This document shows positions 3,839 through 7,741 of a stretch of DNA of 64,000 nt, piece by piece; the first letter of the stretch is position 1, and each line of letters opens with the position of its first letter. The notes beneath the pieces were generated by a model that was not told the DNA's origin, did no database searches, and was given only the letters and a program-made list of their open reading frames with translations. The translations under genes and the position numbers were made by a program. Origin of the DNA: Pseudomonadota bacterium (GTDB lineage: Bacteria; Pseudomonadota; Gammaproteobacteria; JAKAQQ01); contig JAKCBQ010000005.1 of assembly GCA_021839245.1 (NCBI GenBank), positions 4,043 through 68,042 of the forward strand, given 5' to 3'.

Positions 3839-4033
3839 TATTTCTTACCGAATGGCAATCCCATCATTTTACATCCACAGAAGGTAGCCCATATGATTGC
3901 AATACAAATCAGTATCTTAGTTACAAGCCGACTCCGGCCAACGTGCACATTTTAGCGTACACAATTATTTATGTTATTGATATAAAAATGATTTCTACAG
4001 AGTCGGACTTCTGTCCACAGCATCTTGTGCCAT
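3839..4033. promoter_or_regulatory. AT-rich recF-gyrB intergenic region (gyrB promoter region)
   Basis: 195-bp AT-rich island (ttatttatgttattgatataaaaatgatttc) in otherwise 65% GC DNA. Contains two degenerate DnaA-box-like 9-mers (acatccaca, ctgtccaca). Confidence 0.35.
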
Positions 4034-5080
4034 CTAGGGGACGTTCCACGTGGAACATTCTCCAAGATCCTCCCTGCCTACAAGACCATTTTCCTGTGAG
4101 GTAAGGATCAATTGATGCCTCCCGCCTGTAATGAAGTCAAAAACTTCTTTCCTCGATGCAGGGTCAAGGTCCGATGGAAAATCATCGAAAAGGACATGCA
4201 CGTCCTTTCCCGTCATGTTCGAAACAGCATCCATTGCCGCCCACATTATTCCAACTGCAAGTCTCTTTTGCTGACCCCTTGAGAGATGGCCTCGTGTGTC
4301 AGAGGTGCCGTCGACACGGATCATAAAGGAGGAAAGTTGAGGACTAGAAAATAGCCTTGTTCCCTTGAGAATCGTCTCGCGAATTTTTTTGTAGTCGACC
4401 TTTGCATCGAAGCCTGCTGAGTAGGCGAAGACAATGCTTCGCCCTGGGAAAAGTTTTATGACATTTTGATCGAGCGTCGGTATAAGACTGGAGAAAGCCT
4501 GACTTCGGCTGATTTCAATGGCCTCCGCAGCATTTGCAGCCTGCCTCCACCAAGATTCTTCTCCTGGCATGGACAGCCTCACACATTCCTTCCACTGGAT
4601 GTAGGCTTTTCTGAAATTCCTAAGATTGGAGACGTGGTCACGTTCCACGTGGAACGCAACCCAATCCAGAACACCTCTTTTTCGTGCAGGCTCCCCTGAG
4701 ACAATATCCACAATATCCCTATTCAAATAAACAAATGGGAAACGCCTCGAAATATCAGAATGCGTGGTTGTTGCTGTATTCATTTCGAGCTCGGTCTTCC
4801 TTCTTGACCCATCGAAGAGAAACCTGATACTGGCATGCTTCTCGTTCTTCGAAGAAAAATCTATTCTCGATTCAAATGACTTTCTACCGTCAGAAATCAT
4901 CCTATTCAGGTGTCCCGTGCGAAAGGAACGCCCTCTCATCGTGGTATAGATTGCCTCAAGGAAAGTCGTCTTCCCAGATCCATTTGGCCCCTGTATGAGA
5001 AGGTCTCTCTGACTCAGATTAACGATCACGGGCTCGCGAAAGCAGCGGATCCCCTCCAGGGCGACCCGGATGAGTGCCAT
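4034..5080 (-). CDS. recF: DNA replication and repair protein RecF
   Basis: 348-aa ORF with Walker A GPNGSGKTTFLEAI and the SMC-like signature LSRGQQKRL. Located downstream of dnaN. Markedly lower GC (about 45%) than flanking DNA. Confidence 0.93.
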   Translation of the reverse strand: MALIRVALEGIRCFREPVIVNLSQRDLLIQGPNGSGKTTFLEAIYTTMRGRSFRTGHLNRMISDGRKSFESRIDFSSKNEKHASIRFLFDGSRRKTELEMNTATTTHSDISRRFPFVYLNRDIVDIVSGEPARKRGVLDWVAFHVERDHVSNLRNFRKAYIQWKECVRLSMPGEESWWRQAANAAEAIEISRSQAFSSLIPTLDQNVIKLFPGRSIVFAYSAGFDAKVDYKKIRETILKGTRLFSSPQLSSFMIRVDGTSDTRGHLSRGQQKRLAVGIMWAAMDAVSNMTGKDVHVLFDDFPSDLDPASRKEVFDFITGGRHQLILTSQENGLVGREDLGECSTWNVP

Positions 5081-6195
5081 CAGATGCGAAGGGGCATAAT
5101 CACGCTCTTCTGCTCTCCCTTGCTTGTGCCCGGCTCAAGAATGCTGCTTGCGGCTGCCGTTGTCATTCGAAAAACTCCTCTCTCATCTCTTATGCTGGCC
5201 AATGCCTCGAGTATGTAGTCTGCGTTGAAGGAAATCTCAATGTCTTCTCCCTGTTGCTCGACATCGACTGTTTCCTCCGATATGTCGTTCTGTTTGTTCT
5301 TGGCCAACACACGTAGGACACTGCTGGAAAGAAGAAAGTTGACAGCACCATACTTTTCTCCGACGAGAGCACGCGCATGCTTGACGGATTCCTTTAAGTC
5401 GTTAATATTGAAATAAAAAAACTTATCTGGCGCGACGGGGATCACCCTTTCGTAGTCCGGGTAATCCTTGCCAGGCATGATGCGACTGGAGAGCCTCAGG
5501 TCTCTTGTCAGAAACCTAACGGTATTTTCGCTAAGAGCGATTGTGACCGTTGTGTCCGTTAGCGTAGCCAGAATTTTTTCCATTTCCAGGACGGCCTTGC
5601 GGGGAAGTATGAGGTTGGCACTTTCTCCCGTACTTTTGACTTCGGCTTCATCCATCGAGAGTCTGTGTCCATCCGTTGCGACCGCACGTAATTTTCCATC
5701 TCGCAGGACGAGGAGCATGCCGTTGAGATAGTGTCTCGAGTCGTTCTGGGCCATGGCATATGATGTGGCACGAAAGAGAGAGAGAAGTCGCTCTGACGAA
5801 ATTTCGAGCGTGCCCCTTGGCTCCTCTGCCCTCATGACAGGGAAGTCCTCTGCCGGAAGAGTGGCGATAACGAAACGGCTCTTGCCGCTGTGCATCTGGA
5901 TGCGGTCTTGGCCCTGATCCTGTCGAAGCTCAAAGACCGCTTCTTCAGGGAAACTTCTCAGGATTTCATAAAACTTCCTTCCTTGGACGAGGACTTGGAA
6001 CTCCTCACCCGTAACATCGAGAGACTGCTGCGCCTCCAGCTCGACCTCGCTGTCGGTCGCACAGGCTTTGAGGTGAGATCCCTTTTTGTAGAGAAGAACA
6101 TGACTCAGTACGGGAAGTGGTGCACGGGTATCAACGACACCAAGGACATGTTGGAGAATTCGGCTGATCTGAGAGTTGACGATATTCATCCGCAT
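5080..6195 (-). CDS. dnaN: DNA polymerase III beta sliding clamp
   Basis: 371-aa ORF with three-domain beta-clamp architecture. The N-terminus MRMNIVNSQISRILQHV is DnaN-like. Stop overlaps the recF start by 1 bp. GC about 48%. Confidence 0.95.
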   Translation of the reverse strand: MRMNIVNSQISRILQHVLGVVDTRAPLPVLSHVLLYKKGSHLKACATDSEVELEAQQSLDVTGEEFQVLVQGRKFYEILRSFPEEAVFELRQDQGQDRIQMHSGKSRFVIATLPAEDFPVMRAEEPRGTLEISSERLLSLFRATSYAMAQNDSRHYLNGMLLVLRDGKLRAVATDGHRLSMDEAEVKSTGESANLILPRKAVLEMEKILATLTDTTVTIALSENTVRFLTRDLRLSSRIMPGKDYPDYERVIPVAPDKFFYFNINDLKESVKHARALVGEKYGAVNFLLSSSVLRVLAKNKQNDISEETVDVEQQGEDIEISFNADYILEALASIRDERGVFRMTTAAASSILEPGTSKGEQKSVIMPLRI

Positions 6196-6267
6196 GGGAG
6201 AGCCTCATAAGAATGTAACGGGTATCAGTAAAGATTTACCTGTAGAAACGTTAGCTGTAGTGGAATC

Positions 6268-6398
6268 TGTGGGTAACTAGGAGGACAGCGTAGAGGATCG
6301 GTTGTTTGCATGGTTGTGTTCAACGTGATGGATGTGGAAAATCTGTGAATATCCTGAAGGGTAATGGGGCCAACCGACATAGAAAAAACTTATTCACA
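6268..6398. promoter_or_regulatory. Cluster of DnaA boxes in the dnaA-dnaN intergenic region
   Basis: Matches to TTWTNCACA: ttattcaca at about 6390-6398 (perfect), tgtggaaaa (rc ttttccaca) at about 6333-6341 (perfect), tgtgggtaa at about 6268-6276 (one mismatch), tgtgaatat at about 6344-6352 (one mismatch). AT-rich context. Confidence 0.5.
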
Positions 6399-6403
6399 GC
6401 TTG

Positions 6404-7741
6404 TCAGCCAGTGATTATACGAAGCAGATTTTGATAATCCTCCTGGACCTTGGGGTCAGATTTGCGTAATTCCTTGATCTTCTTGGAGGCATGAAGGACG
6501 GTGGTGTGATCGCGGCCGCCGAAAGCGTCACCGATTTCCGGTAGGCTGTGATGGGTGAGCTCCTTCGAAAGAGCCATGGCCATCTGTCGTGGCCGAGCCA
6601 CAGAACGGCTTCGGTTCTTCGAGTTGATGTCCGAAATTCGTATGCGATAGTAGTTGGCGACAGTCTTCTGTATGTTGTCGAGGCTGATGAGCCTTTGCTG
6701 CAAGGAAAGCAGGTCGTGAAGAGCCAGTTTGGTCGTTTCGATATCAATGGGCTGGGAAGTGAATCGGGCGTGGGCGATTACGCGGTGGAGCGCTCCCTCC
6801 AGTTCGCGTACGTTAGAGCGAATCCTCTCCGAAATAAAAAAAGCGACCTCGTGTGGTAGGCACAGACCGAGTCGTTCAGCCTTGGCCGAGAGAATCGCAA
6901 CGCAAGTCTCGACCTCGGGGGGTTCGATGGCCACGGTAAGTCCCCAGCCAAAGCGGGATTTGAGGCGCTCTTCAAGACCATCAACTTCTTTCGGATAGCG
7001 ATCGCAGCTGAGGACCACCTGCTGACGGGCCTCGAGAAGGGTATTGAAGGTGTGAAAAAACTCTTCCTGAGTTCTCTCTTTCCCCGAGAAGAACTGAATA
7101 TCGTCAATGAGAAGCATGTCGAGGGAACGGTAACGTCGCTTGAATTCCCCCATCGTGTTGCTTTGCAGGGCGACGACCATGTCACCCACAAAGCGCTCCG
7201 AATGAACATAGGCCACACGACGGGTGGAATCTTTGCCGAGAAAATGTTGACCAATTGCGTGCATGAGATGCGTTTTGCCCAGACCGACACCGCCATAGAC
7301 AAACAGGGGGTTGTAAGCCTTGCCCGGGTTATCGGCAACGGTGTAAGCCGCCGCACGCGCGATCCTATTGCACCCACCTTCGACGAAGTTGGCAAAGATG
7401 TAATCGGTATTAAGCGGACTTCCCGGGATCGGGAACGGAGCGTTCGTGTCGCCCTTGCGAGTGGCTTGGCCGCGCACCCGAGCTGGTGTCTTTTCGTTCG
7501 AGCCGACGACGACGGAGACGTCGAGAATTTGACCTGCGACGTGAGAGACGACCGCATGCAGTCGTTGGAGGTAGTTCTCGCGAACACGGTCCGCGACCAG
7601 AGCGTTCGGCGCCTGCAGAGAAAAAGTTCCGTCGGAAAGGCGGGCCTGGAGCGGTCGCAGCCAAAGTGTGATTTCCCGCTCCCCGACATCCCGTTCGAGG
7701 ATGCGAAGACATTCGTTCCAGAGCAGACGGGAATCGGTCAC
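6404..7741 (-). CDS. dnaA: Chromosomal replication initiator protein DnaA
   Basis: AAA+ Walker [11 protein letters not shown] and a C-terminal DNA-binding domain. About 65% identical to Pseudomonas DnaA from memory. The ORF extends to a TTG at 7810, but the alignment (MSLSLWQQCL versus [12 protein letters not shown]) favours the GTG at 7741. Confidence 0.9.

Follow-up and report, generated by a model that had tools for sequence, protein, structure and literature searches.

The dnaA-dnaN-recF-gyrB gene cluster near the start of a 64,000-nucleotide stretch of a Pseudomonadota genome (GenBank assembly GCA_021839245.1, contig JAKCBQ010000005.1, positions 4,043 to 68,042 of the forward strand; hereafter the window, numbered from its first letter) lies in a trough of low GC content that is very probably vertical, lineage-wide and maintained, with no transfer involved. 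The segment is the canonical replication gene cluster, and the trough that it has inherited is centred on recF and is unusually deep. In its full form, the explanation considered likely here combines vertical inheritance, a generic and a lineage-specific layer of GC reduction, and a weak GC-favouring force. The initial annotation had singled out positions 3840-7400, spanning the 3' part of dnaA, dnaN and recF, and had offered two readings, namely replacement by homologous recombination from a lower-GC relative and a local AT-skewing constraint near the origin of replication.

Base composition of the cluster

Segment 3840-7400 has a GC content of 50.1% and is the lowest 3.56-kb window within the 64 kb. 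The remaining 3.56-kb windows have a mean of 63.7% (standard deviation 1.4, minimum 60.5), and the sliding-window profile displays a single clear trough in the first 14 kb. The low-GC segment is thus real, and the figures attached to it by hand counting require revision. The mean of the entire window is 62.65% rather than the 66% ascribed to the chromosome. Low GC was correctly recognized in recF and dnaN, with computed values of 48.6% and 51.3% instead of 45-48%, and in the 3' part of dnaA, where the last 330 codons have 54.0% instead of 45-50%, compared with 60.6% in the N-terminal part and 56% for the gene as a whole. The values for gyrB (59.5%), plsC and rnpA are 59.5-61.6%, where 62-68% had been given. 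The direction of the contrast therefore stands, and its size shrinks from the ~20 points implied by the hand counts to ~12-14 points relative to the surroundings.

The GC contents at the first and third codon positions (GC1 and GC3) are.51 and.52 in recF, and GC3 is.57 in dnaN. The other long open reading frames (ORFs) of the window have 59-69% GC and GC3 values of.62-.78, with one exception at 40176-40811 that is probably mis-framed. As had been noted for K, N, I and F, the encoded proteins are enriched in residues with AT-rich codons: F/Y/M/I/N/K account for 25% of RecF, compared with 13.5 ± 1.8% (maximum 16.1) in 19 GC-rich outgroup RecF proteins, and for 23% of DnaN, compared with 16.1 ± 1.5% in GC-rich outgroups.

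The edges of the trough fall inside genes. One lies in dnaA, between the two parts described above, and the other in the first quarter of gyrB at four-fold degenerate sites, where the GC content (GC4) is 7.3 points under that of the rest of the gene. This drop recurs in 7/7 lineage members (3-15 points) and compares with -1.2 ± 4.7 points in 61 outgroups. The placement of the composition boundaries inside dnaA and near the gyrB 5' end is thereby borne out. The base composition departs from that of the rest of the genome, which by itself is not diagnostic of transfer.

Conservation in relatives and vertical descent

The relatives available for comparison comprise contigs from four further clade species (L007, L009, L011 and L013), the near-species relative L014, which is the independent metagenome-assembled genome (MAG) "Proteobacteria bacterium TL1-5.bin26", and two sister lineages (L094 and L095). 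An identical DnaN is encoded on 21 contigs from independent assemblies and samples with the same flanking genes, and L014 is collinear with the window at 91% nucleotide identity throughout the region. DnaN homologues within this small clade are 78, 75, 72, 67 and 57% identical, and those of all other Gammaproteobacteria ~38%. The gene order glnA-glyQS-gmhB-plsC-gyrB-recF-dnaN-dnaA-rnpA-yidD-yidC-mnmE-mnmG is common to the clade, and the extended synteny is also present in the sister lineages. Comparison of the orthologous region uncovered the low-GC pattern in all relatives. The same trough with the same edges is seen in L014 and in the four other species, whose backgrounds range over 60-74% GC. 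Within the clade the deficit relative to background is 13-15 points for recF and 8-13 points for dnaN; recF of L013, for instance, has 57% GC and its flanks 71-75%. The trough is milder in the sister lineages, and in L094 dnaN and recF have 48.8% and 52.1% versus 58-60% in the flanks.

Of the proteins in the block, RecF evolves fastest. It is 42-52% identical to its clade orthologues, compared with 60-90% for the neighbouring genes, and its best matches beyond the clade (31-32% identity) are those of the syntenic sisters L094 and L095. All flanking proteins match DnaN and RecF in their divergence from outsiders. GyrB is 50-52% identical to its sister-lineage counterparts and 49-50% identical at most to anything else found, and GlyS and YidC are 38% and 45% identical to those of the sisters. 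Judged from such sequence comparisons, the lineage of the source organism is deep-branching among the Proteobacteria.

Neighbour-joining (NJ) trees with bootstrap were calculated for GyrB, RecF, DnaN, DnaA, the DnaA N-terminal part and the DnaA C-terminal 330 residues. In all except the DnaN tree, the window pairs with L014 at 100%, the five-member clade is recovered at 100%, and the clade joins L094 and L095 at 76-99%. The DnaN tree recovers the clade at 100% with L013 basal (95%); its deeper node is not resolved and introduces no conflict. No incongruence between the two halves of DnaA, or between DnaN or RecF and GyrB, is seen in these trees. Across dnaA and dnaN the nucleotide identity to L014 stays level at 91-94%, like that of the flanks, and it is lower only in recF (85-88%), in the spacers and in the variable DnaA linker. 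No block of lowered identity and no recombination edge relative to L014 was seen over dnaA-dnaN-recF. A search of 5.8 billion proteins returned no lower-GC, donor-like homologue, the next DnaN and RecF being 38% and 32% identical, and the segment contains no mobility genes. The proposal that the dnaA 3' part, dnaN and recF were replaced by recombination from a lower-GC relative fails because every relative found shares the low-GC pattern and the RecF, DnaA and GyrB phylogenies are congruent, with no conflict from DnaN, the two kinds of observation named beforehand as speaking against it; the identity profile, too, contains no block of lowered identity.

A separate observation concerns two same-species contigs, L003 and L002, which are identical to L001 over 17 kb and then abruptly become 6-8% divergent. 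The divergence starts at about L001:17000 (glyS 3' end, glyQ, glnA), just past the left end of the window, and results either from homologous recombination between strains or from an assembly that mixes strains. Mosaicism is therefore present in the population, though absent from the trough.

Synonymous sites and equilibrium

Four-fold sites of the window species are 0.35-0.45 identical to those of L009, L011 and L013, where 0.30-0.35 is expected by chance for conserved codon families, and their identity to L094 equals the chance expectation. At these sites recF nevertheless falls short of the flanking-gene mean by 19, 21, 16 and 27 points in four species of the clade and by 10 and 8 points in the sisters, while dnaN lies 5-18 points below the flanks across the lineage. 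The deficit follows the GC content of each genome. Because the deficits persist despite (nearly) saturated four-fold sites, the trough is a maintained equilibrium and not a relic. Slow amelioration or lag cannot explain the deficit because recF evolves fastest and the deficit persists. A GC lag after a recent genome-wide rise in GC was considered and rejected, since the fastest-evolving gene, recF, is also the most AT-rich.

The four-fold sites of recF (A.24, T.26, G.23, C.27) show no codon bias. In typical genes A is avoided at these sites (.03-.12) and C is preferred, and A-ending codons are 2-5 times commoner in the trough than elsewhere. Synonymous divergence (dS) from L014 is 0.44 in recF, 0.37 in gmhB, 0.35 in dnaN and 0.34 in dnaA, and 0.20 to 0.31 in the other flanking genes; gmhB is a flanking gene with below-average GC4. 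Over 12 genes dS rises as GC4 falls (Spearman -0.85, p = 0.0004), and the coefficient is -0.82 when the three trough genes are removed. A locally weak GC-favouring force is favoured over selection for AT because dS is highest in recF. GC4 declines toward the recF 3' end only in the clade with the ~190-bp recF-gyrB spacer. A regional component is indicated by this fall, by the AT-rich spacers and by the GC4 drop in the first quarter of gyrB. Six same-species contigs are near-identical over the trough (0-2 differences per 500 bp), which leaves no power for a recombination cold-spot test.

A generic trough in GC-rich genomes

GC-rich genomes were sampled via two GyrB peptide patterns, and offsets were calculated for 24 loci with a background above 58% GC. 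Total GC served as the background; ORF-based GC1 and GC3 were dropped, as wrong-frame ORFs in GC-rich DNA swap them (e.g. L056), and gyrB was taken as the in-frame reference for the GC content of the first two codon positions (GC12) of recF. The outgroup offsets are -5.4 ± 2.7 for dnaA, -5.5 ± 2.8 for dnaN, -3.5 ± 2.6 for recF and -3.8 ± 1.7 for gyrB. A meta-profile of 19 syntenic outgroup loci shows a trough that extends over all four genes and is deepest at the spacers on either side of dnaA. In the outgroups, dnaA domains I-II exceed domains III-IV in GC by 3.1 ± 2.6 points (maximum 8.6). The difference is 6.6 points in the window, and the step inside dnaA, a domain effect common among GC-rich genomes, is therefore unremarkable here. 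GC content at the second codon position (GC2) of DnaN is.36-.40 in every genome. Replication genes have been reported to be GC-poorer in Xylella and Xanthomonas (PMC8495750), and a literature search for a described dnaA-dnaN-recF GC trough found nothing specific.

Measured against the outgroups, dnaA and gyrB of the window are ordinary, dnaN (-8 to -13) falls in the tail, and recF (-13 to -15) lies beyond the range. The lineage thus exceeds the generic trough roughly two-fold in dnaN and is three- to five-fold deeper in recF. The GC12 of recF is 3-10 points lower than that of gyrB in the clade and 4.6 ± 2.9 points higher in the outgroups. No trough is present in Escherichia coli MG1655 (dnaA 54.1, dnaN 54.2, recF 55.0, gyrB 55.0%), and E. 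coli was dropped as a model of an AT-rich, rare-codon recF on account of its recF value.

The outgroup MAGs L016 and L018 (B112T1L10 and B45T1B8) have a strong trough restricted to dnaA and dnaN, with recF above background. Its depth is -8 to -11 points in total GC, and roughly 17-23 points in GC3 when set against the unreliable ORF-based background. Origin-region troughs with other gene limits thus recur in other lineages.

Cause of the trough

Given vertical descent, we lean toward a locally weak GC-favouring force as the cause. The generic layer places the four-gene cluster ~4-6 points under its surroundings in GC-rich relatives. Here the conserved parts of DnaA (AAA+ and DNA-binding domains), DnaN and GyrB keep amino acids of low GC1 and GC2, and the spacer adjacent to dnaA is AT-rich; by itself this layer accounts for the dnaA and gyrB values and for the step inside dnaA. 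The lineage-specific layer would reflect a weak GC-favouring force in dnaN and recF, in both trough spacers and in the gene ends next to them. Candidates for this force, opposing AT-biased mutation, are selection on GC or codon usage and GC-biased gene conversion, the two terms in which it has been framed (PMC4450053, PMC11879095); in most bacteria, GC content is correlated with recombination and with how effective selection is (PMC11879095; PMC4450053). Its weakness might stem from a recombination cold spot or from low-expression codon usage. Synonymous sites would then settle near unbiased composition, synonymous divergence would be highest there, and the weakly constrained RecF would have drifted toward AT-encoded residues. 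The offset moves with the GC content of each genome and therefore points to equilibrium. Presumably, proximity to the candidate replication origin (oriC) in the dnaA-dnaN spacer matters.

Several points weigh against this explanation. The deep placement of DnaN is unresolved, and NJ trees are simple distance trees. The dS comparison covers one species pair (the window and L014) and 12 genes. The generic layer is established for GC-rich genomes only, E. coli having no trough. The GC4 of recF (50%) is below the apparent non-coding baseline (about 60-63% in the other spacers), and for that reason a regional effect or selection for AT fits better than a plain loss of codon selection. Furthermore, recombination is reported to be highest near the origin in most species (PMC11879095), which lends no support to a cold spot at precisely this place.

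An assembly or binning artefact joining two organisms would be conceivable for a MAG-type contig such as this one, and its probability is negligible, with the same joined sequence on 21 contigs from independent samples, a collinear independent MAG at 91% identity and a canonical gene order. A recent homologous replacement of the dnaA 3' part, dnaN and recF from a lower-GC relative would produce a deficit of 12-14 points with edges inside dnaA and gyrB, and strain-level mosaic blocks do exist elsewhere in the population (L003 versus L001 past glyS). Such an event is nonetheless extremely improbable in view of the identical trough and edges in every clade member and the sister lineages, the flat ~91-94% identity to L014 over dnaA and dnaN (only mildly lower, 85-88%, in recF), the congruent trees and the missing donor-like homologue among the 5.8 billion proteins. 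If the transfer is moved back to the ancestor of the clade, or of the clade and its sisters, with amelioration still incomplete, the low identity of DnaN (38%) and RecF (32%) to other Gammaproteobacteria and the unresolved deep position of DnaN become compatible with it. However, all flanking proteins are equally far from outsiders (GyrB 50%, GlyS 38%, YidC 45%), the syntenic sisters are the closest group to the clade in the trees of RecF and of either DnaA half, and saturated four-fold sites should have erased an ancestral GC3 signal, yet the deficit persists and tracks genome GC. The fastest-evolving gene, recF, should moreover have ameliorated first. An ancient transfer is therefore very unlikely.

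Positive selection for AT-rich DNA across the origin-proximal domain might act because such DNA opens more easily, because the gyrB/dnaN promoter region is sensitive to supercoiling, or because a nucleoid protein that prefers AT-rich DNA uses it as a platform, and the clade-specific AT-rich recF-gyrB spacer would then be a second focus. It is consistent with a trough that crosses gene borders and takes in spacers at 38-44% GC versus ~60% elsewhere, with the conserved DnaA boxes in the dnaA-dnaN spacer, with the recF GC4 below the non-coding baseline, and with a GC4 drop toward the recF 3' end only in the clade with the 190-bp spacer and its 15%-GC core. Conversely, selection on composition should lower dS, which is highest in recF and raised in dnaN and dnaA; the sequence of the recF-gyrB spacer is poorly conserved; and no origin function is known to require 3.5 kb of AT-rich coding DNA. 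We regard such selection as unlikely. Still more doubtful is the specific version of an actively selected ~4-kb AT-rich domain around the origin, anchored on the DnaA-box spacer and the gained recF-gyrB spacer, in which the latter could serve a split origin as an unwinding element that has been displaced, or could be where an AT-binding nucleoid protein nucleates. If true, a DNA-level function would force the coding sequences of dnaN and recF to be AT-rich. The second suggestion of the initial annotation, an AT-skewing constraint near the origin, holds in that the trough is a lineage-wide origin-proximal feature, which more probably reflects a weak GC-favouring force than constraint in the sense of selection for AT. 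A purely protein-intrinsic cause, in which the amino-acid composition of replication proteins resists GC pressure, agrees with the generic trough of about -5 points in 19-24 outgroup loci, with the DnaN GC2 of.36-.40 everywhere and with the common dnaA domain step. It leaves the four-fold-site deficits and the AT-rich spacers unexplained, the AT shift sits in RecF, the least conserved protein here, and the GC12 of recF relative to gyrB is 4.6 points higher in outgroups and 3-10 points below in the clade. Protein-intrinsic composition is thus insufficient as the sole cause, a role in which it is most improbable, and valid as the generic layer.

Relation to known systems

The trough is an instance of a recognized type of GC heterogeneity within genomes (Lassalle et al. 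2015, PMC4450053; PMC11879095), with which it shares gene-to-gene GC3 variation without transfer, an inverse relation of GC4 to dS and GC-poorer replication genes in 19-24 GC-rich outgroups. It differs in the depth at recF (-13 to -15 points in total GC, -16 to -27 at four-fold sites), which is beyond the outgroup range, and in being contiguous over four genes and two spacers.

The same four genes occur in the same order and on one strand in the canonical proteobacterial cluster (E. coli b3702-b3699), which likewise has the dnaN/recF overlap, the divergent upstream rpmH-rnpA-yidC-mnmE genes and DnaA boxes adjoining dnaA. The cluster adjoins oriC in Pseudomonas and Xanthomonas. In contrast to E. 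coli, which has no trough, dnaN and recF here are 11-14 points under background. The recF-gyrB spacer is 195 bp long and AT-rich, versus 28 bp in E. coli, and the DnaA-box cluster occupies the dnaA-dnaN spacer instead of lying upstream of dnaA.

In the model of Lawrence and Ochman, an acquired low-GC island or recombination mosaic undergoes amelioration. A deviation of more than 10 points and edges off the gene borders are shared with such islands. The trough differs from them in lacking incongruence, patchy distribution, identity breakpoints and mobility genes, and in deviating at saturated sites. It serves as a caution, since a drop that exceeds 10 points and begins and ends within essential genes mimics a recombination mosaic and is here vertically inherited and at equilibrium. 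Composition-based island finders should expect a milder trough near dnaA in GC-rich relatives, and the codon-bias-free recF could give an internal estimate of the base composition that these uncultured genomes have in the absence of selection. The trough opens no question of long standing.

Genes and spacers of the cluster

The four genes (Table 1) are orthologues in canonical order on one strand, and their NCBIfam equivalog or subfamily matches are all above cutoff. The whole dnaA gene spans 6404-7741 (- strand), and its 445-aa call agrees with independent assemblies. The dnaN stop overlaps the recF start. The RecF translation contains Walker A (GPNGSGKT), Walker B-like (LFDDFPSDLD) and signature (LSRGQQ) motifs, and the recF ORF is intact in all lineage members. 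Compared with L014, both dN (nonsynonymous divergence) and dS of recF are raised, and the dN/dS ratio of 0.18 is comparable to those of plsC and yidC, which argues for a working gene; on its sequence, recF is considered functional and not a pseudogene.

Table 1 Features of the dnaA-dnaN-recF-gyrB region in the window.
Feature	Position	Strand	GC (%)	Family match or remark
gyrB (798 aa)	1442..3838	-	59.5	NCBIfam NF011501, 969 bits; body near background GC
gyrB 5' quarter	about 3240-3838	-		pulled into the trough at synonymous sites (GC4)
recF-gyrB spacer, 195 bp	3839..4033		38.5	deepest point of the trough
40-bp core of recF-gyrB spacer	3958-3997		15
recF (348 aa)	4034..5080	-		TIGR00611, 183.5 bits (cutoff 172); intact, lowest-GC gene
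dnaN (371 aa, sliding clamp)	5080..6195	-	51.3	TIGR00663, 250 bits
dnaA-dnaN spacer, 208 bp	6196..6403		43.8
DnaA-box-like 9-mers	6268-6276, 6333-6341, 6390-6398			in dnaA-dnaN spacer; ≤1 mismatch
dnaA domains III-IV (last 330 codons)	6404..7396	-	54.0	TIGR00362, 564 bits (whole protein)
dnaA N-terminal domains I-II	7397..7741	-	60.6	GTG start at 7741; near background
dnaA-rpmH divergent spacer, 308 bp	7742..8049		57.5	outside the trough
rpmH	8050-8184	+

The trough spacers have 38-44% GC, compared with about 60-63% for the other spacers of the window. A recF-gyrB spacer of 183-297 bp is found only in the five-member clade, the sister lineages having 31-34 bp, and the gain of the ~190-bp spacer coincides with the deepest recF trough. 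The spacer probably holds the gyrB promoter region. A promoter and terminator scan returned promoter-like matches, at the consensus level only, on the - strand at 4017-3988 and 3977-3949. In the spacer alignment, sequence conservation is poor outside the close pair, and no elements are definable. A palindrome, GTTCCACGTGGAAC, is located at 4043-4056 (- strand) at the extreme 3' end of recF, and the near-identical GTTCCACGTGAAAC occurs in the recF-gyrB spacers of L009 and L013; the two may represent a conserved protein-binding site. An Rfam scan of the window returned one tRNA only, at 46022-46107 (- strand), with no match in the trough and no rRNA gene.

Candidate replication origin

The three DnaA boxes of the dnaA-dnaN spacer lie within 131 bp, where ~0.01 would be expected, and constitute 3/10 of the matches with ≤1 mismatch in the window. 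They are conserved in the spacer alignment, and boxes are positioned at offsets of +6, +53/63 and +128/130 in the four clade species L001, L007, L009 and L011 and in both sister lineages; in L013 the sole box with ≤1 mismatch is at +169. The dnaA-rpmH spacer contains no box at this threshold. The lowest 40-bp GC content in the dnaA-dnaN spacer is 32.5%, the 15% stretch being located in the recF-gyrB spacer. The arrangement suggests that the dnaA-dnaN spacer, downstream of dnaA in this lineage, is oriC or a DnaA-regulated dnaN promoter, and oriC is likely to reside there.

The GC skew changes sign at ~5.4-6.2 kb and its cumulative minimum is at ~6 kb, values that are ambiguous as to the origin, since coding-strand effects dominate the skew in the window. 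Elsewhere in the window the skew is near zero at 8-38 kb. At 47000-59000 the + strand has a strong G-C skew of positive sign, from +46 to +131 per kb, though most genes there are on the - strand. Skew in this genome seems to be driven largely by coding-strand composition, in the form of C-rich four-fold sites.

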